The notes below the pieces were generated by a model. The model saw only the letters and a program-made list of their open reading frames with translations. It was not told where the DNA came from and did no database searches. A stretch of 38,331 nt of DNA, from IMG/VR virus record IMGVR_UViG_3300028829_002503; one strand, written 5' to 3'. Made by a program: the position numbers and the translations under genes. Positions 11,795 through 26,099 of the stretch are shown piece after piece. This stretch comes from a virus. The stretch's first letter is position 1; each line of letters starts with the position of its first letter.

Positions 11795-11956
11795 ATGAAT
11801 ATGAATTTTCGAGCATGGCTACAAAATGTTTGGTTTGAACACAAAGACGAAAAGTTAGCATGGCAAGAAACAGTTGATTATACAATAGACGAGTGGATTA
11901 GTAAAAACCTAAAGTTTCTAACTAAACGCTACAAGGCAGAGACTAAATCAAAATGA
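11795..11956 (+). CDS. 53-aa Trp-rich hypothetical protein (not in ORF track)
   Basis: AAGGAG SD; MNMNFRAWLQNVWFEHKDEKLAWQETVDYTIDEWISKNLKFLTKRYKAETKSK*; ATGA coupling to the next gene. Confidence 0.8.
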   Translation: MNMNFRAWLQNVWFEHKDEKLAWQETVDYTIDEWISKNLKFLTKRYKAETKSK

Positions 11957-12735
11957 AGATAGTCTTAGCAACAGGTGGATTTGACCCAGTACATTCGGGT
12001 CATATCTCATATCTCAAAGCCGCAAAAGATATGGGCGATATGCTCATTGTTGGCTTAAACTCAGATGAATGGCTAGAACGCAAAAAAGGCAAATGTTTTA
12101 TGCCTTGGAACGAGCGTATCGCAATTCTCAATAACTTACAAATGGTAGATGAAGTCTTCACCTTTATGGATGACGATGATACTGCTATCAATTTCATTAA
12201 ACAAGTTATCGCACATTATCCAAATGACCAAATAATCTTCGCTAACGGCGGTGATAGAAAAAAAAGCAATACGCCTGAAGTAGAATTTGCAACATCTATT
12301 GCAGACACTTCACCTGGATTTGGTTTTGTATGGGGCGTAGGCGGAACAGATAAGAAAAATTCAAGCAGTTGGATTTTAGAAGAATGGAAAGCACCTAAAA
12401 CAATTCGAAATTGGGGTTACTATAGAGTATTACACGAAGACGGAACAGGTGCAGAACGTAAAACAAAAGTAAAAGAACTTACTATAGACCCAGGAAAATC
12501 TTTATCTTTACAGAGACACGAATACAGAAGTGAGTATTGGGTAGTAACACAAGGAGTTGCTACATTAGAGTTAGAAGGTCAACCTAGAGAACTAGGAATA
12601 CACGAAAATGTAGAAATACCTTGTGGCTGGTGGCATAAACTAAGTAATCAAACTTCAACGCCTGTAAGAATTGTAGAAATTCAAACAGGATTAAAATGTG
12701 AAGAAGAAGACATAGAACGTGCTGAATTAAAATAA
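11953..12735 (+). CDS. Cytidylyltransferase-like (HxGH) domain fused to a cupin (PMI type II-like) domain
   Basis: TGGFDPVHSGH, VGLNSD and FANGGDR; C-terminal RNWGYY...SLQRHEYRSEYWVV...WHKLSN. Confidence 0.85.
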   Translation: MKIVLATGGFDPVHSGHISYLKAAKDMGDMLIVGLNSDEWLERKKGKCFMPWNERIAILNNLQMVDEVFTFMDDDDTAINFIKQVIAHYPNDQIIFANGGDRKKSNTPEVEFATSIADTSPGFGFVWGVGGTDKKNSSSWILEEWKAPKTIRNWGYYRVLHEDGTGAERKTKVKELTIDPGKSLSLQRHEYRSEYWVVTQGVATLELEGQPRELGIHENVEIPCGWWHKLSNQTSTPVRIVEIQTGLKCEEEDIERAELK

Positions 12736-13437: not shown

Positions 13438-13659
13438 ATGGGAACAGATATTATAGTAGTATTAGGTGCCTTCATAGGTACTTGTGCATATTTTAGTTAC
13501 AAAAGTGGTATGAAATATGGATATGAAACAATGGCACGTGAAGTTGCTACAGCGATAGTCGATATTCATATGGAGCAACAAAAGATTGAAGTAATGAAAC
13601 TTGAAATTGAACAAATTCAAAGAGAATGCCAACAATTAATGGAAGAAAACCAAACATGA
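13438..13659 (+). CDS. Small membrane-anchored coiled-coil protein
   Basis: GAGGAG SD; N-terminal hydrophobic helix followed by a heptad-like C-terminus. Confidence 0.75.
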
Positions 13660-14606
13660 AAATTATATCTGGTAATAGTAATCTAAAACTAGCAGAAGAA
13701 ATTGCATCGCATTGTTTCGCTACATTAGTTCCCGCAGAAATCAAAACTTTTGCAGATGGAGAAAGTAGCGTAGAGTTTTTAGAGAATGTTCGAGGTGAAG
13801 ATGTCTTTATTGTTCAGAGTACAAGTACTCCTGTAAATGATAATCTTATGGAACTTCTTGTAATGATTGATGCGGCAAAACGTAGTAGTGCAAAACGTAT
13901 TACAGCAGTCATTCCTTACTTTGGTTATGCAAGACAAGATAGAAAAAGTGCAAGTCGTACACCAATTACTGCTAAACTCGTAGCAAATCTCATTACAGAA
14001 GCCGGTGCAGATAGAGTTCTGACAATGGACTTACACGCTGGACAAATTCAAGGCTTTTTTGATATTCCTGTTGATGATTTAACAAGTCGTATCGTATTTG
14101 CTAAAGATATTAAGAGACGATTAGGTGATAAAGCCTATAAAAATACAGTATTCGTTTCACCTGATGCAGGTGGTACTATGAGAGCCCGTAAATTTGCTGA
14201 AATGTTTCATGGTGATATTGCTATCGTAGATAAACGTAGACCAAAAGCAGGTACAAGTGAAGTAATGAACATTATTGGAGAAGTTGAAGGTCAACATGCG
14301 ATATTAGTTGACGATATTGTCGATAGTGGTGGAACTTTATGTAATGCCGCACAGGCAATAATAGATGCAGGTGCATTAAGTGTTAGAGCATACATTACTC
14401 ACGGAGTTTTAACAGGTGAAGCCTGTCAAAAAGTGGAAAAGAGTGTGTTAGAAGAATTAGTCATTACAGATAGTATCGAATTTCGTTGTCCTAGCGATTT
14501 AAAGAAGACACGACAAGTTAGTGTTTCAAAATTGTTCGGTGAAGCAATTCGTAGAGTGAGTAATGAAGAAAGTGTAAGTTCATTATTCTATAATCAAAAG
14601 GTTTAG
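13656..14606 (+). CDS. prs: Ribose-phosphate pyrophosphokinase (PRPP synthetase)
   Basis: [45 protein letters not shown] and THG motifs. Confidence 0.96.
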
Positions 14607-15386: not shown

Positions 15387-15418
15387 ATAGTTATATTAAA
15401 CAATTGAGAGGGTTAAAT

Positions 15419-16429
15419 ATGAACATAGTAAAAATCGAAAACGGGTCTTACAACAATACCGAAATCAACGGTTGTTTCCCACTAATCAAAGGTATCACTA
15501 AGTCGAAAGACGGGTCATACTTTGTAAAAGTTAAGACAACTGATGCGACCGAGAAAGTATTTGCTGGCCGCGATGCTTGTCGAATTAAGATTGACAGTCA
15601 CGACCAAATCACCGAAGTTGAAGGTGATGCGGGTAAAGAATTAGTTGAAACAGAAGACCAAGCAATTGAAAGAATTGCTGAACGTTTCTCTATTTTAGAA
15701 GAAATGACTGGTGCTACACTTGATGGAATCGTGCGAGGCATGATTGTTACAGGACCTCCAGGAGTTGGTAAGACATTTGGTGTTGAACAAATACTTGAAA
15801 AAGATAGTTTGTTTGATGTGATGGCAGACCGACCACTTCGACATACATTTGTTAAAGGTGCGATGTCGGCAATTGGTCTTTACAGTACACTTTACAAGTA
15901 TTCAGATGATAAGAGTATCGTTGTTCTGGATGACTGTGATAGTATTCTTTGGAATGAAGATGCTTTGAATATTCTTAAAGCCGCACTTGATAGTGGTAAG
16001 AAAAGACGAATTTCTTGGAACTCGGATTCAAACTTCTTACGAAGAGAAGGTGTTCCTGGTGAATTTGAATTTAAAGGTTCAGTTATCTTTATTACAAACT
16101 TGAAGTTTGATAGTACTAGACAAACTAAAATCAAAGACCACTTAGAGGCTATTCTTTCTCGTTGTCATTACCTTGACCTCACACTTGACACTACACGTGA
16201 CAAGATTATGAGAATTAAACAGATTGCCAGAGACGGTGGATTGTTTGATACTAAGGGTCTTACTAAGATACAAGAACAAGAAATCATTGAGTTTATGGTT
16301 GAAAACCAAGATAGACTACGTGAAGTATCTTTGAGAATGGCTCAAAAGATTGCAGACCTGCTTAATATGAATAAAGCACGTTGGAAAGCACTCGCAGAAT
16401 CAACTTGTATGAAACGAAGAGTTTCATAA
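15419..16429 (+). CDS. AAA+-type ATPase
   Basis: Walker A GPPGVGKT, Walker B VVLDDCD, sensor IFITN and arginine finger ILSRC. Confidence 0.85.
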   Translation: MNIVKIENGSYNNTEINGCFPLIKGITKSKDGSYFVKVKTTDATEKVFAGRDACRIKIDSHDQITEVEGDAGKELVETEDQAIERIAERFSILEEMTGATLDGIVRGMIVTGPPGVGKTFGVEQILEKDSLFDVMADRPLRHTFVKGAMSAIGLYSTLYKYSDDKSIVVLDDCDSILWNEDALNILKAALDSGKKRRISWNSDSNFLRREGVPGEFEFKGSVIFITNLKFDSTRQTKIKDHLEAILSRCHYLDLTLDTTRDKIMRIKQIARDGGLFDTKGLTKIQEQEIIEFMVENQDRLREVSLRMAQKIADLLNMNKARWKALAESTCMKRRVS

Positions 16430-16554: not shown

Positions 16555-18000
16555 ATGAATAAATGTACAATCATAATCAAGGACGAAGTAAACGTTAAGT
16601 TAGAAGGCCTTGACCCATCTACTCGTAGAAAATGTAGTGATAAATTGAAGTATTTCCTACCTCATGCATATCATATGCCTGCATATAAACTCGGTCGATG
16701 GGATGGCACGGTCCGCTTTTGTGATGTCGGTGGTAGAACTTATCTAAATTTATTAGATGATGTTTTACCAGTAATCATCGAACAAGGTTACGAGATAACC
16801 ATCGATGATAGGCGTGAGAACGAAGAAATGAGTTTTCCTATTATAACTGAGAACTTCTGGGAGGGAGTTACTTGGCCTGAAGGACATGCAAAAGCGGGCG
16901 AGCCTATCGTACTAAGAGATTATCAAGTAGAAGTAATCAATCAGTTCATATCAGCACCACAATGTCTCCAAGAGATAGCCACGGGTGCTGGTAAGACGAT
17001 TATGACTGCAACTATGAGTAAAGTAGTAGAGAAATATGGTAGGTCAATCATCATTGTACCAAACAAAGATTTAGTACGCCAGACAGAAGAAGATTATGTA
17101 AATTGTGGACTAGATGTTGGAGTATATTTTGGTGATAAGAAAGACCACGGAAAGACACATACGATTTGTACATGGCAAAGTTTAAATTCTTTATTAAAGA
17201 AAACTAAAAAAGGCGAAGCAAACATCCAAGAATTCATCGAAGGTGTATGTTGTGTAATTGTTGATGAAACTCACCAAGCAAAAGCAGATGTATTGAAAGA
17301 TTTACTTACTAGTGTATTTGCTAATGTGCCTATTCGTTGGGGTCTAACAGGAACTATTCCTAAGAGTGATTGGGAATCTGCTAGTTTACGCAGTTCACTA
17401 GGTGAAGTAATAAACAAACTATCAGCAAAAGAATTACAGGATGAAGGTGTATTAGCAAACTGTCATGTGAATATAGTCCAGACACAAGAAACGGCAGTAT
17501 ATGCCAATTACCAAAATGAAATGACTTTTTTACTTGAAGACAAAAAGCGTTTAGACTATATTTCATCAATGATTAAAGATATTTCTAAAACAGGAAATAC
17601 TTTAGTTCTTACAAATAGAATTAAAAATGGTGAAGCATTACAAGAACTAATACCAGATGCTGAGTTTGTTCAAGGCTCAATGGCAGTAACAGATAGAAAG
17701 GATGCATACAATGACATAAATGAAGGCACGAATACAATCACAATTGCTACTTATGGGGTAGCGGCAGTTGGTATTAATATTCCTCGTATATTTAATTTAG
17801 TACTATTAGAACCAGGCAAATCGTTTGTTAGAGTTATACAATCAATTGGCCGTGGAGTTAGAATGGCAGAAGATAAAGACTTTGTACAAATATGGGACGT
17901 AACAAGTCGTTGTAAGTTTTCAAAAAGACATTTAACAGAACGAAAAAAGTATTATAAAGAGGCTTCATACCCATTCACAATAGATAAGATTACATATTAA
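16555..18000 (+). CDS. uvsW: SF2 DNA helicase, UvsW-like
   Basis: WDG N-terminal motif, LRDYQ, ATGAGKT, VDETH, GLTGT, GINIP and QSIGRGVR. Confidence 0.92.
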   Translation: MNKCTIIIKDEVNVKLEGLDPSTRRKCSDKLKYFLPHAYHMPAYKLGRWDGTVRFCDVGGRTYLNLLDDVLPVIIEQGYEITIDDRRENEEMSFPIITENFWEGVTWPEGHAKAGEPIVLRDYQVEVINQFISAPQCLQEIATGAGKTIMTATMSKVVEKYGRSIIIVPNKDLVRQTEEDYVNCGLDVGVYFGDKKDHGKTHTICTWQSLNSLLKKTKKGEANIQEFIEGVCCVIVDETHQAKADVLKDLLTSVFANVPIRWGLTGTIPKSDWESASLRSSLGEVINKLSAKELQDEGVLANCHVNIVQTQETAVYANYQNEMTFLLEDKKRLDYISSMIKDISKTGNTLVLTNRIKNGEALQELIPDAEFVQGSMAVTDRKDAYNDINEGTNTITIATYGVAAVGINIPRIFNLVLLEPGKSFVRVIQSIGRGVRMAEDKDFVQIWDVTSRCKFSKRHLTERKKYYKEASYPFTIDKITY

Positions 18001-19175: not shown

Positions 19176-19846
19176 GTTTTGAATGTCAATACTGTTTAAA
19201 AAAGTTCAAGTCTGAAAAGACGTTAATGGTTCATGTTTGTGAGCCTAAAAGACGTTGGATGAATAAAGATGAAAAGTATAGCAGACTGGCGTTTTATGCA
19301 TTTAATCGTTTTTATGAGTTGACACAAGTAACTGGCAAACCTATTGACTTTAAAATGTTTGCAAAGAGTAAGTTCTACCTAGGATTTACTAAATTTGGCA
19401 AACATATACTAAATATAAATGCGATAAATCCTGAAGAATATATTGACTTTGTTATACAAAATAGTGTAAAATTAGATAAATGGACTTCAGATGTAGTATA
19501 TAATACATATGTGCAAGAGTTAAATAGAAAAGAATCTGCGGATAGAGCGGTAGAGCGAAGCATATTATTAATGCAGAAGTGGGGTGAAGAATATGAAAGA
19601 CCTTTTAACAAGTTTTTTGAGGAAGTCAGTAAACCATTGGCTATACATTATATCAAATCAGGACGCATTAGTCCTTGGGTTATTTTTAATTGTGATAATG
19701 GTGCTGAATTGATTGATAGTTTTTCTGACCACGAGTTGACGTTGATAAATGATTATTTAGAGCCCGCATTTTGGACACGAAAGTTCAACGCAAGGGTAGA
19801 AGATGTTCAATTTGTTAAAATGATATTGAAGAAGGCAGGTATATAA
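19172..19846 (+). CDS. Zinc-finger (C2HC-like) hypothetical protein
   Basis: N-terminal FECQYCLKKFKSEKTLMVHVCE followed by a helical domain with GRISPW. Confidence 0.75.
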   Translation: MSFECQYCLKKFKSEKTLMVHVCEPKRRWMNKDEKYSRLAFYAFNRFYELTQVTGKPIDFKMFAKSKFYLGFTKFGKHILNINAINPEEYIDFVIQNSVKLDKWTSDVVYNTYVQELNRKESADRAVERSILLMQKWGEEYERPFNKFFEEVSKPLAIHYIKSGRISPWVIFNCDNGAELIDSFSDHELTLINDYLEPAFWTRKFNARVEDVQFVKMILKKAGI

Positions 19847-20037
19847 TGGCAACGAAAAAAGAAACTTCAGTAGTCGGTAGTCTACTAATACAGAAAGACC
19901 CAGAAACAGGTGAATTATATATAGAGTTACCAAAGGAAACTTTAGCGAGGTTGGGTTGGGGCGAAGACGATGATTTAGAATGGATAGAAAATCCAGATGG
20001 AAGTTGGCAAGTAATCAAAAAGGAGAATAAGAAATGA
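19846..20037 (+). CDS. AbrB/MazE/SpoVT-like small DNA-binding protein
   Basis: GELYIELPKETLARLGWGEDDDLEW is the swapped-hairpin signature. Confidence 0.7.
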   Translation: MATKKETSVVGSLLIQKDPETGELYIELPKETLARLGWGEDDDLEWIENPDGSWQVIKKENKK

Positions 20038-20324
20038 ATCCAGAAGATTTAATGATAACATTAGATACAGATAGTTCTGATAGTGGTTACATATCACCTA
20101 CTACAATAACACTTGATGATAATTATTGGAGTGATATGAGCGACCCAAGAGACCAAGAAGCATTCAAGTCTATAAATGACAGATTATCAACGATTGAAAA
20201 TCGATTATCAATTCTTGTTCCAGATAAAGAGATGCTTGAGAAATATGAAGTACTGAAAGATATGTATAAACAGTACAAAGCCGCAGAAGCATTACTTACT
20301 GGTCCTGACCCGGAGAAAACTTAA
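20034..20324 (+). CDS. Hypothetical protein
   Basis: AAGGAG SD; coupled at both ends; C-terminal coiled coil. Confidence 0.75.
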   Translation: MNPEDLMITLDTDSSDSGYISPTTITLDDNYWSDMSDPRDQEAFKSINDRLSTIENRLSILVPDKEMLEKYEVLKDMYKQYKAAEALLTGPDPEKT

Positions 20325-20815
20325 TGGATATTAGAGAATATACTTGGGAAGGAATAGAAATAGGAGTCAACTCAATTGCAATGCAAATGTTTAAAGATGA
20401 ATGGCGCCCAGATTATATTGTAGGTATAACTCGTGGTGGTTTAATTCCAGGAGTTCTTCTATCTCACACAACTGACATACCAATGAAAACATTATGTGTT
20501 CAATTGAAATCAGATGGGTTAGAAGAAGTTACTGAACATAATGCTCAGATGGCGAGAGATGCATTAAAGAATAATAAAAAGATTTTGATAATTGATGATA
20601 TCAATAGAGGCGGAGATGCAATCAGTTGGATTATAGATGATTGGCAAGATGCAATTGGTATGGTAGGAGATTATAAATCAGAATCGTGGCATACAAATGT
20701 AAGATTTGCTTCATTAATTGATAATCCAAACTCTAAAGTTCCAATGGATTATTGTAATGAAGAAATTGACTTAGATGAAGAAAATGTCTGGGTGGAGTTT
20801 CCGTGGGAGAGTTAA
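20324..20815 (+). CDS. Type I phosphoribosyltransferase (Gpt-like)
   Basis: PDYIVGITRGGLIPG, ILIIDDINRGG (PRPP loop) and WVEFPWE. Confidence 0.85.
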   Translation: MDIREYTWEGIEIGVNSIAMQMFKDEWRPDYIVGITRGGLIPGVLLSHTTDIPMKTLCVQLKSDGLEEVTEHNAQMARDALKNNKKILIIDDINRGGDAISWIIDDWQDAIGMVGDYKSESWHTNVRFASLIDNPNSKVPMDYCNEEIDLDEENVWVEFPWES

Positions 20816-21123
20816 TAAGACGCAATCCCCAAAGAACACAAGAAAGACTTTTACGACTTCGTAGAATAGTAGGACCTGAAAAGAACCCTAAAAGAAGATT
20901 TGCATCAGATTTTGATAATGATGATTATTTAAAATGGACTAGTATATCTTCTGATAAGATAGATTATGAAATAAAGCCAATTGTAAAAGGTGCTGGTCGA
21001 TTAGGTGAACTAGTTGATTGGTGTGATGACAATTGTAATGGAATATATGTTATAGGAAAAGCAGATAAGATATATTTTGAAGATGAAAATGATGCGGCAA
21101 TGTTCGCTTTGGTATGGAAATGA
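20803..21123 (+). CDS. Hypothetical protein (WC...FEDENDAAMFALVW)
   Basis: GTG start with GGAG SD; ATGA coupling to the mini-DnaE. Confidence 0.7.
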   Translation: MGELIRRNPQRTQERLLRLRRIVGPEKNPKRRFASDFDNDDYLKWTSISSDKIDYEIKPIVKGAGRLGELVDWCDDNCNGIYVIGKADKIYFEDENDAAMFALVWK

Positions 21124-21713
21124 ATATAGTAAAAACAGATATTGATATTGATGTAGTTAGCAGAGATGATTTGCTTATACACTTTAAGCATATTCCAGCA
21201 ATTATAAAAAAGAAAGACAATACATATGATAAACATAACAGCGGTGTATATCTTCAGCCTATTCCATTTGACCAACTTACCGGTCTTTCATCAATTGATT
21301 ATAAAGAAGCAGAAGACAGAGGATATTTCAAGTTAGATTTTCTAAACAATTCTTTATATGAAGGTGTACGAGATGAAGCACATTTAGATAAATTAACGAA
21401 CCAAGAACCAATATGGGACTTGTTACAACATGAAGATGTTGTCAAAAATCTAGCCCATGTTCATGCTCATATCAAAGTATTAAGGGTATTAAAACCTCAG
21501 AGTATTATTGAACTTGCTGAAGTATTAGCAATCATACGACCAGCAAAAAGACCTCTTCTAAATGAGAGTAAAGAAAAAATTAAAAAAGAAGTGTGGATTA
21601 AACCAACTGATGGTTCTTATTACTTTAAAAAAGCACATGCGATTGCATATGCAGTTAGTATTGTGGTTCAACTTAATCTATTTTGCGAACAAGTTGAACA
21701 GAACGCCGTTTAA
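21120..21713 (+). CDS. Miniature DNA polymerase III alpha (DnaE)-like catalytic core
   Basis: TDIDID, KHNSGVY, GYFKLDFL, LAIIRP and YYFKKAHAIAYA occur in DnaE order within 197 aa. Confidence 0.85.
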   Translation: MNIVKTDIDIDVVSRDDLLIHFKHIPAIIKKKDNTYDKHNSGVYLQPIPFDQLTGLSSIDYKEAEDRGYFKLDFLNNSLYEGVRDEAHLDKLTNQEPIWDLLQHEDVVKNLAHVHAHIKVLRVLKPQSIIELAEVLAIIRPAKRPLLNESKEKIKKEVWIKPTDGSYYFKKAHAIAYAVSIVVQLNLFCEQVEQNAV

Positions 21714-22065
21714 TTCTCTTTTGAATAATATTTGTTAAACTGGTCTCAGGTCCCCATAAAATTTCACAATCTTTTGAATTCATATTTACGATACAATCCT
21801 TAAATGGTTCTATTTGAGACCTTAAGAATAGGTTGATAGGAATTAATCTATTTGATTCCCACCACCATTGTTCACCAAGTTCTATGAAATGCTTTCTTGC
21901 TTCCGCAGTATTAATCGTTTCAAAGTCATACATTGATGTTATTGTGTTATCGCTATTAATTATGATTCCAAGATATTCTGAGTATTCTTTCTTATTTCCA
22001 TATTTAACACATGAAAAGAAAGGGTAGTTTTCTTGTAGCCATTGTATCTTGTTTTCGTCTTCCAT
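21673..22065 (-). CDS. Hypothetical protein
   Basis: 130-aa ORF with YLGII and WWWESNRLIPINLFL; CATAAATA motif 6 nt upstream. Confidence 0.8.
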   Translation of the reverse strand: MEDENKIQWLQENYPFFSCVKYGNKKEYSEYLGIIINSDNTITSMYDFETINTAEARKHFIELGEQWWWESNRLIPINLFLRSQIEPFKDCIVNMNSKDCEILWGPETSLTNIIQKRIKRRSVQLVRKID

Positions 22066-22928: not shown

Positions 22929-22957
22929 TTGACTTTTATGTTCCATTGGTGTATTAT
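22929..22957 (+). promoter_or_regulatory. sigma70-type promoter, probably leaderless for the primase
   Basis: TTGACT-N17-TATTAT, then 6 nt, then ATG. Confidence 0.7.
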
Positions 22958-22963
22958 AAGTAC

Positions 22964-23962
22964 ATGGAACTACAACAAACTGTTTATCAATTCATTTCCG
23001 GTAAGACAAGACAAAGTTCAGGCGGTTGGCTGAGTTTTAATTGTCCGTGCTGTATAGACCAAGGTGAGGCTCGGTCTGATACAAGAATGAGAGGTGGATT
23101 AAAAAATGAGGGTGATTTAGTATCATATCATTGTTTTAATTGTGGTATAACTGCATCTCATAGAAAAGGTCAAGTCATAAACAAGAATTTTGTTAAGTTT
23201 ATGAGATTGCTTGGTGTTCCTGAGAGTGAGATAAAAAGATTACAGATTGAAAGTATCCGAGAGAAAGAACTATCAGAAGGTCCGTGGATATTCAAATCAA
23301 AAACTCAAACTACAAGAATACCATCATTTCCTGGAATGTCATTACCAGAAAATTCTGAAAATTTAGATGATATACTAAATAAAGATACCCCACCCGAGGG
23401 CGCAATTATGGCGGCAAAATATCTACTTGATAGAGGTGTTTATGATTTTGTAGATACATATTGGAGTAGTTCGTTTGGATTTAAAAATCGTATTATATTT
23501 CCATTTACACAAGGTGACAGAATTGTAGGATATACAGGAAGAGATTATACGGGCAAGTCAGAGTCTAAGTATATGACGAAGCAACCAAAGAATTTTTTAT
23601 ATAACTCTGATAAGATTAAAGAAGATAGAGAATATTTAATTGTAGTTGAAGGAACGATTGATGCCGCAGTTTTAGACTGTGTTGCTATAATGAGTAACGA
23701 AGCATCACAAAATCAAATTGATTATATTAATCAGTTTAAAGGGGAAGTTATCGTATGTCCTGACAGAGATAACGCCGGTAAGAAGTTAATATATCAGGCA
23801 CAAGAAAACGGTTGGAGTGTTTCATTTCCAATCTGGGAAGAACATATTAAAGATGCGGCAGACTCAGTTAAAGAGTATGGAAAATTATACACATTAAAAT
23901 CGATTATTGATGGACGCATAAGTAATAGTACAAAGATAAGTGTGAAAACACGCATAATGTAA
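22964..23962 (+). CDS. DNA primase (T4 gp61-like)
   Basis: Zinc ribbon CPCC...HCFNC, RIIFPF, TOPRIM VVEGTIDA and PDRDNAG. Confidence 0.9.
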   Translation: MELQQTVYQFISGKTRQSSGGWLSFNCPCCIDQGEARSDTRMRGGLKNEGDLVSYHCFNCGITASHRKGQVINKNFVKFMRLLGVPESEIKRLQIESIREKELSEGPWIFKSKTQTTRIPSFPGMSLPENSENLDDILNKDTPPEGAIMAAKYLLDRGVYDFVDTYWSSSFGFKNRIIFPFTQGDRIVGYTGRDYTGKSESKYMTKQPKNFLYNSDKIKEDREYLIVVEGTIDAAVLDCVAIMSNEASQNQIDYINQFKGEVIVCPDRDNAGKKLIYQAQENGWSVSFPIWEEHIKDAADSVKEYGKLYTLKSIIDGRISNSTKISVKTRIM

Positions 23963-23982: not shown

Positions 23983-24630
23983 ATGAAAAATACAGAAATA
24001 AAAATTAACGTGATACCAGAGCCTAAAGAAGTGCCGCCTCCACCACCGCCGCCTCCAATGCCACAACCACCAACACCACCAAAACAACCTGGTGAATTCT
24101 TAAGAGAGAATGGCGTGTTGCACATGGACAAAGAATTCAACCAAGATAACTGTATGCCATTAGTTAAGATGATTATGGAATATAATCTAATGCCAGAAGA
24201 TAAGGCACCAGAGATTATTCACTTGTATATCAACTCACCTGGTGGATATGTAGATAGTTGTATGCATCTTATTGATGTTATTAAACAATCTCGTATTCCA
24301 GTTTACACATACGGAATGGGTTCAATCGCAAGTTGTGGTGTTATGCTTATGATGTCTGGAGTAAAAGGACATAGATATCTAACACAGAATACGGCGGTTA
24401 TGTCACACGAATTTAGTGGCGGAACTAGAGGGCAATACCACGATATGTTAGATGCACAATCTCATATGGAATGGACAAATCAAAAACTACTTGAACATTA
24501 TATGAAATGTACTGGAAAGAAAGAGAATTATATTCGTAAACATATGTTAGCACCGAAGACTGACCATTGGCTAACTCCTGAAGAAGCAGTAAAACATGGT
24601 ATTGCTGATGTATTAATTGAAACATATTAG
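23983..24630 (+). CDS. clpP: ClpP-family serine protease with polyproline N-terminus
   Basis: LYINSPGG, GSIASCG (Ser), MSHE (His) and TDHWLTPEEA (Asp). Confidence 0.88.
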   Translation: MKNTEIKINVIPEPKEVPPPPPPPPMPQPPTPPKQPGEFLRENGVLHMDKEFNQDNCMPLVKMIMEYNLMPEDKAPEIIHLYINSPGGYVDSCMHLIDVIKQSRIPVYTYGMGSIASCGVMLMMSGVKGHRYLTQNTAVMSHEFSGGTRGQYHDMLDAQSHMEWTNQKLLEHYMKCTGKKENYIRKHMLAPKTDHWLTPEEAVKHGIADVLIETY

Positions 24631-24686: not shown

Positions 24687-26099
24687 ATGTCAGAAGTCAA
24701 AAACTATTCACCAGACTTGCAGAAGTTGTTTGTTCAATTTATGCTAACAGACCCACAGTTATTTACTAGGGTTATGGGTATTATTGATGAGAAGCATTTT
24801 GATAGACCAACACGTGATGTTGTAGGATATCTTATTGGATATAGTGAAGAATATTCCACAATGCCGTCTGTTGAGCAGATTAAAGCAGAAACTGGCCAAG
24901 AAATTGAATTACTAGAAGACATAGCAAAGCATAGTGATTGGTTTGTCGATGAGTTTGAAACATTCTGTAGACATAAAGCAATTGAACGAGCAATCGTTAA
25001 TAGTGCAGATTTACTTGAAGAAGGTAAATACGGTGAAGTAGAAACAACTATCAAAGATGCAGTTCAGATTGGTTTAGCAAGGTCTTTAGGTACAGACTAT
25101 TTTGATGACCCTAGAGCAAGACTTGAGATGCTTAAAGACAATAATGGGCAAATCACTACCGGTTGGAAAGACTTAGATGATAAACTTTATGGTGGCATTA
25201 ATCGAGGTGAAGTAACTATCTTCGCTGGTGGTTCTGGTTCAGGTAAATCTTTGTTTATGCAGAATATGTCATTGAACTGGGCAGAAGCCGGCATGAATGT
25301 TGTCTATCTTACTTTAGAATTGTCAGAAGAATTATCAGCAATGCGTATCGATGCGATGGCAACTGATAAAAGCACTAGACGAATATTTAAAGAACTAGAT
25401 GATGTTGAGTTGAAAGTGAAGACTATCGGTAAGAAATCTGGTATGCTTAGAATTAAATATATGTCATCAGGTTCAACAATCAATGATGTCCGTGCTTATC
25501 TAAAAGAACTTCAAATCGTAACAGGAAAAAATGTAGATTGTATCTGCATTGATTACTTAGACTTGTTAATGCCTGCGACTAAGAAAGTTAATCCAGGTGA
25601 CTTGTTTATTAAAGACAAATATGTCACAGAAGAAATTCGTAACTTTGCAATGGAAACTGAAACAGTTGTAGTGACAGCCTCGCAGTTAAATCGTTCAGCA
25701 GTAGAAGAAATTGAGTTTGACCACTCTCATATTGCTGGTGGTATCTCTAAGATTCAAACTGCTGATAATGTTATTGGCATCTTTACAAGTAATGCGATGA
25801 GAGAACGTGGTCAATATCAACTCCAACTACTAAAAACAAGAAGTTCAAGTGGCGTTGGTTCTAAAATAAATCTAGTATTTGACAGAGATAGTCTTAGAAT
25901 TAGTGATTCAGACTTAGATGATGATGATTTGGCAGTGAGTTCCCAAGATGCGTCAAAAGTGACAGATATATTAAAGAGAAAAACGACAATATCTACTAAT
26001 GACGATGATTCTGCTATTCCACCAGAGAAAAATCAATCAGCGATAAGCCTTCGTGCAATGGTTAAGTCTAAAAAGGCTACTCCATTTGATGATAATTGA
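24687..26099 (+). CDS. Replicative SF4 helicase (gp41/DnaB-like)
   Basis: GGSGSGKS, TLELSEE, IDYLDL, TASQLNR and LKTR motifs. Confidence 0.93.
   Translation: MSEVKNYSPDLQKLFVQFMLTDPQLFTRVMGIIDEKHFDRPTRDVVGYLIGYSEEYSTMPSVEQIKAETGQEIELLEDIAKHSDWFVDEFETFCRHKAIERAIVNSADLLEEGKYGEVETTIKDAVQIGLARSLGTDYFDDPRARLEMLKDNNGQITTGWKDLDDKLYGGINRGEVTIFAGGSGSGKSLFMQNMSLNWAEAGMNVVYLTLELSEELSAMRIDAMATDKSTRRIFKELDDVELKVKTIGKKSGMLRIKYMSSGSTINDVRAYLKELQIVTGKNVDCICIDYLDLLMPATKKVNPGDLFIKDKYVTEEIRNFAMETETVVVTASQLNRSAVEEIEFDHSHIAGGISKIQTADNVIGIFTSNAMRERGQYQLQLLKTRSSSGVGSKINLVFDRDSLRISDSDLDDDDLAVSSQDASKVTDILKRKTTISTNDDDSAIPPEKNQSAISLRAMVKSKKATPFDDN

Follow-up and report, generated by a model that had tools for sequence, protein, structure and literature searches.

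Half of a probable two-piece, minimal DNA polymerase III α subunit encoded by an uncultured marine jumbo phage

A short, conserved gene with DnaE motifs

This report concerns a gene of 197 codons plus stop (21120-21713, plus strand) in IMG/VR record IMGVR_UViG_3300028829_002503, a viral DNA of 38,331 nucleotides that was analysed as a whole and is called the window below. We refer to the gene and its product as the C-half, since it very probably encodes the Mg2+- and template-binding half of a minimal DNA polymerase III α subunit (Pol III α) that is split into two polypeptides. Its ATG overlaps the TGA of an upstream open reading frame (ORF; 20803-21123, plus strand) in an ATGA tetranucleotide (21120-21123), and the gene closes with TAA (21711-21713); a first-pass annotation, made from the letters alone, had described just this coupled start and clean stop. 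An additional in-frame ATG lies at 21114, 6 bases 5′ of the start, and the 197-residue form is the one chosen in public gene calls and in most homologues.

The same annotation had listed five DnaE-like motifs in the order known from Pol III α, all of which were located, and the profile match to DnaE1 described below is collinear. The first, TDIDID (residues 6-11), contains the DIDID strand (21138-21152, plus strand, as are all motifs), which aligns with PDIDIDF 414-420 of Mycobacterium tuberculosis DnaE1; D7 and D9 of this strand we take to be the first two catalytic aspartates of Pol III α (D401 and D403 in the PDFDVDF of Escherichia coli). KHNSGVY (residues 38-44; 21231-21251) is the counterpart of the 'HAxG' palm strand of DnaE, and GYFKLDFL (residues 68-75) includes the KLDFL strand (21330-21344), which aligns with KMDFL of DnaE1 and carries the third catalytic aspartate, D73, presumably equivalent to D555 of E. 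coli α. Two finger motifs follow: LAIIRP (residues 136-141; LAIIRPAK at 21525-21548), corresponding to ALYRPG, and the helix YYFKKAHAIAYA (residues 167-178; 21618-21653), corresponding to YxFNKSHAxxY. Invariant in an alignment of 67 sequences were D7, D9 and D11 of the first strand, H39 and G42 of the second, K71 and D73 (as well as L75) of the third, R140, P141 and K143 of the first finger motif, and F169, K170, K171, H173 and A174 of the second; the catalytic triad is thus intact, as had been claimed.

In PHROGs, the C-half belongs to phrog_11778 ('DNA polymerase'; E = 2.3e-68, with residues 4-191 aligned to positions 5-194 of the 197-position profile). A tblastn search of GenBank phages found it in 96 records, all of them jumbo phages and each with a protein of ~190-200 amino acids; they include PA5oct, Atu_ph07, RaK2/K64-1, 121Q/PBECO4, Vibrio 2.275.O and Salicola SCTP-2. 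Identity to these cultured-phage copies is 42-52%, and megablast of the 12 kb around the gene gave no match among GenBank phages, so there is no close cultured relative. IMG/VR holds at least 592 C-half loci, and identity to IMG/VR contigs is 76-96%; the best matches (94-96%) lie on short marine contigs, and among complete genomes the nearest, G001 (342.6 kb, with terminal repeats), has a C-half of 78% identity. Gene calls in 31 public-assembly blocks include an identical protein, in one case on a contig of 145,942 bp (ENA assembly ERZ27295583). We take the window to come from an uncultured marine member of the group 2.2 (RaK2/121Q/PA5oct-like) jumbo phages. Among 185,579 species genomes of GTDB, 13 C-half matches were seen, all in metagenome-assembled genomes of unrelated taxa (L198-L210), e.g. 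Neomarinimicrobiota, Methylophilaceae, Natrialbaceae, Pacearchaeota and Elusimicrobia, with archaea among them and one contig of 335 kb; they look like jumbo-phage contigs mis-binned into cellular genomes.

The C-half has one fifth of the length of DnaE, and some other jumbo phages (group 3.2, phage G type; PMC7824862) do encode DnaE at full length. Both points speak for a pseudogene or decaying remnant of a dnaE, from phage or host, that was formerly complete. Against decay, length is fixed at 185-201 residues both in 72 distinct homologues from IMG/VR and in the 150 cluster representatives listed out of 547, among which no full-length close relative was seen. The ratio of non-synonymous to synonymous substitution rates (dN/dS) is 0.06-0.10 at dS 0.3-1.1 in comparisons with eight homologues of equal length, the identical protein recurs in the 31 assembly blocks, and no DnaE remnants flank the gene among the ORFs of the window. 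The fixed length, the low dN/dS and the clean flanks effectively refute the pseudogene reading, whose probability we consider negligible. The C-half gene is real and under selection; the earlier assertion that it is not a broken gene, for which a check of dN/dS and length conservation had been proposed, is borne out on both counts.

Relation of the C-half to DnaE

A Pfam search of the C-half ORF returned no family at E-values up to 10, and the gathering score of PF07733 (DNA_pol3_alpha) was not reached. PHROGs also yielded a weak hit in the central part of a family of DnaE size, and a PDB search with the 67-sequence profile retrieved DnaE1 chains only (M. tuberculosis 5lew, E = 0.005). The match consists of four collinear blocks (412-424, 482-528, 567-663 and 774-788 of DnaE1) that include PDIDIDF, KMDFL...ALYRP and YAFNKSHAAGY. 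Given the Pfam null result and an E-value of just 0.005, the case for kinship with DnaE is carried by the motifs and the predicted structure.

The AlphaFold (AF2) model of the C-half has a predicted local distance difference test (pLDDT) score of 91.2. Searched with Foldseek, it retrieved Pol III α at each of ranks 1-11 (best E = 1.5e-3), with probability 1.00 in ranks 1-6, declining to 0.63 at rank 11. VIA-align placed 186-196 of the 197 residues on 15 C-family polymerase entries with Z 6.0-9.5, e.g. 9.5 for Taq (457-841), 9.4 for M. tuberculosis (415-838), 9.3 for PolC (967-1296) and 8.5 for E. coli (399-784), and the best unrelated entry reached a Z of 3.4. The palm and fingers of Pol β-like fold that the first-pass annotation had anticipated are therefore what the model predicts, as it aligns solely with C-family polymerases.

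In E. coli α, the palm comprises residues 271-432 and 511-560, the thumb 433-510 and the fingers 561-911. About 195 residues of the C-half span 389 residues of this protein (about 396-784), and strands 25-30 and 36-44 of the model are linked by a five-residue turn (31-35) at the place where DnaE has its thumb. Such collinear shrinkage agrees with the earlier suggestion that sequence was removed between the motifs rather than by plain truncation. The model strongly supports the view that the C-half comprises palm strands 2 and 3, which bear the three aspartates, and a condensed version of about the first two thirds of the fingers. PHP domain, thumb, clamp-binding motif and OB fold are absent from it: Pfam gave no match, and all 197 residues are used by the palm strands and fingers. 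Compared with solved DnaE (E. coli 2hnh, Thermus aquaticus 3e0d/2hpi, M. tuberculosis DnaE1 5lew) and PolC (3f2b), the C-half is alike in its palm strands with DxD and the third aspartate and in the order of the finger motifs RP and F(N/K)K(S/A)H. It differs in covering no more than the region equivalent to E. coli 396-784, for which it uses half the number of residues, and in lacking the PHP domain, thumb, β-clamp motif, τ-binding part and OB fold.

A further difference concerns the active site itself. The C-half begins 6 residues before the DxD strand, its structural alignment starts at E. coli 396-399, and the first palm strand, the GRGS triphosphate-binding motif and the helix (E. coli α 279-393) are absent from the ORF. 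A Pol β-like active site also requires that first strand and the G[GS] motif, which holds the triphosphate. The headline of the first-pass annotation, a miniature polymerase core complete in itself, does not stand in this respect, as the missing elements were found in a separate gene in relatives, where the first third of the palm including the GS motif resides on another polypeptide. What held instead was the last alternative on that annotation's list, a subunit of a split polymerase.

The complementary half and its predicted pairing with the C-half

PF07733 was matched above its cut-off exactly once each in RaK2, PA5oct and four large IMG/VR contigs (G001-G004), in every case by a separate ORF of 169-187 amino acids (35-40 bits versus a cut-off of 23.9), which we call the N-half. 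PF07733 is listed as the sole marker gene of the largest marine jumbo-phage cluster (Weinheimer and Aylward, 2022; PMC9123017). The N-half gene lies 34 kb from the C-half gene in RaK2, 44 kb in PA5oct, ~84 kb in G001 and 36-174 kb in other contigs. N-halves end in an invariant ...GVGRGSSV.SY.L...H...S.KY.LD..EFLK, which is the GRGS...FERFLN segment of DnaE. The G001 N-half was modelled with a pLDDT of 85, and its residues 91-184 align with E. coli α 279-393 and M. tuberculosis 307-413 (Z 9-11, for E. coli 9.5-10.5; root-mean-square deviation 2.7 Å). Since this alignment ends at E. coli 393 and that of the C-half (396-784) starts at 396, the two proteins are exactly contiguous on the DnaE structure, the N-half of the relatives ending one loop before the point where the C-half begins. 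Residues 1-85 of the G001 N-half (L086:1162-1416) have no counterpart in any solved C-family polymerase.

Within the 38-kb window, no N-half was detected by tblastn with the RaK2 and PA5oct N-halves or with a hidden Markov model of 73 N-halves in six frames (best E = 0.14), and comparison of the window end with contigs carrying related N-halves gave only a 29-nt match, which is at chance level. The two halves occur together in relatives. GenBank phage records hold 92 N-halves and 96 C-halves with near-identical genus counts. Among IMG/VR contigs with a C-half, all four that are ≥ 59% complete also carry the N-half, including both complete genomes, and the single C-half contig without one is 44% complete; in the reverse test, both halves were present in three of five partial contigs (55-74% complete). 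They are never adjacent, the other half being absent from the flanks of 80 loci of each half.

Division of a C-family polymerase gene into two distant genes is known from cyanobacteria, whose dnaE is naturally split and whose products are joined by a split intein. The phage halves, likewise encoded far apart, might then be ligated by trans-splicing, a possibility that we regard as extremely slight. The cyanobacterial split point is a different one, and the phage halves have no intein sequences. At 80 N-half loci, just 0-6 residues follow EFLK before the ORF ends, and C-halves start at most ~8 residues before DxDxD, which leaves no space for an N-intein of ~100 or a C-intein of ~35 amino acids. 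These half lengths contradict trans-splicing, as does the linker of just 10 residues in a natural fusion of the halves. With no room for split-intein pieces, assembly of the two halves would have to be non-covalent.

The fusion was encountered among the 150 listed of 547 cluster representatives: P0077 is a protein of 375 amino acids with the C-half at residues 190-371, and its residues 1-186 match the N-half profile (hhalign probability 99.8). A search seeded with P0077 gave two further fused proteins of 376 amino acids (P0152 and P0153; 78-81% identical to P0077) on independent contigs. The loci L196:1066-2193 and L197:519-1649 (both plus strand) encode N-half and C-half in one frame, and the fused proteins share the conserved 10-residue linker DNKEGIYNIA. 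Their nearest relatives are split, and the fused gene sits where split forms have their C-half gene, with the small convergent ORF again behind it. The fused forms constitute a small, rare clade, of which no mention was found in the 2021 description of the split enzyme (PMC7824862).

To assess pairing, we folded the two G001 halves together, the C-half of this phage being 78% identical to that of the window. The complex scored 0.89, compared with 0.29 for the best control, and passed a mark that 58 of 80 solved complexes, but also two of 110 mismatched pairs, attained. Runs shared ≥ 88% of contacts, with a partner pLDDT of ≥ 88. In the predicted complex, which has ~200 inter-chain contacts, C-half residues 10-12 touch N-half residue 149, the strand pairing to be expected; the strand IIWGV of the N-half would pair with the DIDID strand to give one complete Pol β-like active site. 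The prediction supports association of the halves, with the qualification that full-length DnaE structures have been solved, so that the predictor may have reproduced a single-chain fold it had learned, and the result indicates similarity rather than binding. N-half residues 3-41 and 76-89 were additionally seen to touch C-half residues 21-24, 44-55 and 66-69; the first ~85 residues of the N-half might take the place of an absent domain, e.g. the thumb.

These results bear on the view that the 197-residue protein is a self-sufficient miniature polymerase. In its favour, all three catalytic aspartates and the finger motifs are present and invariant, and the C-half folds confidently alone in silico (pLDDT 91). 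However, two defining elements of the Pol β-like fold are missing from it, namely the first palm strand and the G[GS] motif. The corresponding segment (E. coli 279-393) is encoded by a separate gene that co-occurs with the C-half and is fused to it in frame in a small clade, and some 200 inter-chain contacts are predicted with its product. We therefore judge self-sufficiency to be quite improbable. The identity of the C-half and its split architecture, by comparison, we hold with high confidence.

Replication neighbourhood and possible function

The C-half gene lies in a conserved replication block, which opens with a UvsW-like DEAD/ResIII helicase (16555-18000, plus strand; PHROGs, Pfam). A small phosphoribosyltransferase (20324-20815, plus strand) is encoded upstream of the C-half, and a gp61/DnaG-like primase (22946-23962, plus strand; phrog_47, E = 2e-39) and a gp41/DnaB-like replicative helicase (24687-26099, plus strand; phrog_19, E = 4e-75) follow downstream. 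Further upstream in the window are a gp32-like single-stranded DNA-binding protein, UvsX, UvsY and ribonucleotide reductase. The T4-like context with uvsW and a phosphoribosyltransferase gene, noted at first reading, is accordingly present. The order UvsW, small conserved ORFs, C-half, convergent ORF, structural protein, primase and DnaB helicase is common to the window, RaK2 and PA5oct.

No family B polymerase is encoded within the window. Such a polymerase is present in G001, G002, RaK2 and PA5oct, and in relatives the N-half is encoded beside it. In PA5oct, PF00136 was found in two open frames (825 and 379 amino acids) that lie ~2.5 kb apart (L090, L091, L093; 217.6-221.4 kb), which suggests that the main polymerase gene of this phage is also interrupted or split.

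Overall, we assign a probability of about 80% to the following reading: the C-half is one half of a two-piece minimal Pol III α, and the halves would assemble into a low-processivity, template-directed polymerase that acts beside the family B replicase, in gap filling, repair or one specialised replication step. The role of a low-processivity second polymerase, be it for one strand, gap filling or repair, is deduced from a published conjecture, the retention of the finger motifs and the replication-gene neighbourhood. That the heterodimer is a templated DNA polymerase, taken as a claim by itself, we put at about even odds. Several points weigh against the overall reading. Pfam is silent on the ORF, and the sequence link to DnaE, taken alone, is weak (E = 0.005). 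The N-half and the family B polymerase of this phage are deduced from relatives that are at most 78% identical. The first ~85 residues of the N-half are phage-specific. An enzyme without thumb and clamp-binding motif may not be a conventional polymerase, and no experimental paper on the activity of any member was found in the literature.

The two-piece enzyme could instead be active without being a templated polymerase, e.g. as an untemplated terminal transferase, a maker of nucleotide signals or an enzyme acting on modified nucleotides. Enzymes of Pol β fold include many nucleotidyltransferases that are not polymerases, and the lack of thumb, clamp-binding and proofreading domains, the family B replicase already present in relatives and the proximity of the C-half gene to nucleotide-salvage genes (phosphoribosyltransferase and phosphoribosyl pyrophosphate synthetase) would all suit such an activity. 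However, the invariant RP and FKKxH are the DnaE finger motifs that handle the template and the incoming deoxynucleoside triphosphate, all 197 residues align with C-family polymerases only, and the gene sits within the conserved replication block from UvsW to primase and helicase. We consider a non-polymerase function unlikely.

C-family polymerases are the bacterial replicases, and every member characterised to our knowledge exceeds 900 residues. A split, minimal Pol III α of group 2.2 jumbo phages was described computationally in 2021 (Iyer, Anantharaman, Krishnan, Burroughs and Aravind, Viruses 13:63; PMC7824862). The kind is already annotated as phrog_11778, with RaK2 ORF124 (YP_007007279.1) and PA5oct gp264 (YP_010678950.1) as examples of the C-terminal unit, and several GenBank records name it 'DNA polymerase III alpha' or 'DnaE-like'. 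As the concept is published and the gene named, the window adds a marine member rather than a discovery. Its C-half shares the family (E = 2.3e-68), length, invariant motifs, neighbourhood and T4-type replication genes with the group 2.2 enzymes, and differs in being only 42-52% identical to the cultured copies and in coming from an uncultured marine lineage. The DnaE of group 3.2 jumbo phages is likewise a C-family polymerase encoded by a jumbo phage; it is host-like and full-length, has a PHP domain and serves as main replicase, whereas the group 2.2 type is minimal and split and coexists with a family B polymerase.

What is added here is the structural junction of the halves (E. coli α 393/396), the finding that the split point is strictly conserved, and a natural fusion, itself rare, that might be used as a single-chain construct. 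A bare active site in two pieces, maintained by strong selection across hundreds of jumbo phages, raises the question of the minimum needed for C-family catalysis, and it may also be asked why jumbo phages with a family B replicase keep a second, unrelated polymerase. It is possible, at somewhat less than even odds in our estimate, that the heterodimer is a working template-directed polymerase of ~290 core residues which, without thumb, clamp or proofreading domains, performs a task of its own alongside the family B replicase, for instance gap filling or repair; the first ~85 residues of the N-half would then perhaps replace the thumb. If so, the natural single chain of 375 amino acids would be the smallest C-family polymerase known, and the enzyme would offer a tractable experimental model for the catalytic module of Pol III in a minimal and possibly ancestral-like state.

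Of the immediate neighbours, the upstream ORF that ends in the ATGA (106 amino acids) has no family match, and RaK2 and PA5oct lack a counterpart of it at this position. A convergent ORF of 130 amino acids overlaps the C-half gene by 41 nt at its 3′ end (21673-22065, minus strand; phrog_11637, function unknown), for which there was no Pfam lead and no usable ESM Atlas match. This overlapping convergent neighbour is also found in RaK2 (ORF125w, 17 nt), in PA5oct (gp263, 17 nt) and on the fused-form contig L197, the link being kept across proteins that are just 42-51% identical. A terminator-like hairpin for the 130-residue ORF lies inside the C-half gene (21652-21633, minus strand), one such site being the expectation from shuffled sequence; in the promoter and terminator scan around the C-half gene, counts were at or below shuffled expectation.

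Some further genes of the window were noted in passing. Between primase and helicase lies a ClpP-like prohead protease gene (23983-24630, plus strand) whose product has a proline-rich N-terminus, PPPPPPPPMPQPPTPP; in RaK2 and PA5oct, by contrast, primase and helicase genes are adjacent. Nucleotide/NAD-type salvage genes are interleaved with the replication genes at 11953-12735, 13626-14606 and 20324-20815 (all plus strand), the set comprising a cytidylyl/adenylyltransferase-like protein with a cupin domain, phosphoribosyl pyrophosphate synthetase and the small phosphoribosyltransferase. A 63-residue ORF (19846-20037, plus strand) has a sub-threshold MazE/AbrB-like match (E = 1e-4, 22.6 bits versus a cut-off of 24.7). 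Finally, the AAA+ ATPase core (PF00004, E = 3e-5) of a 341-residue protein of phrog_1250 ('unknown function'; 15404-16429, plus strand) was noted; this protein may be a subunit of clamp-loader type.

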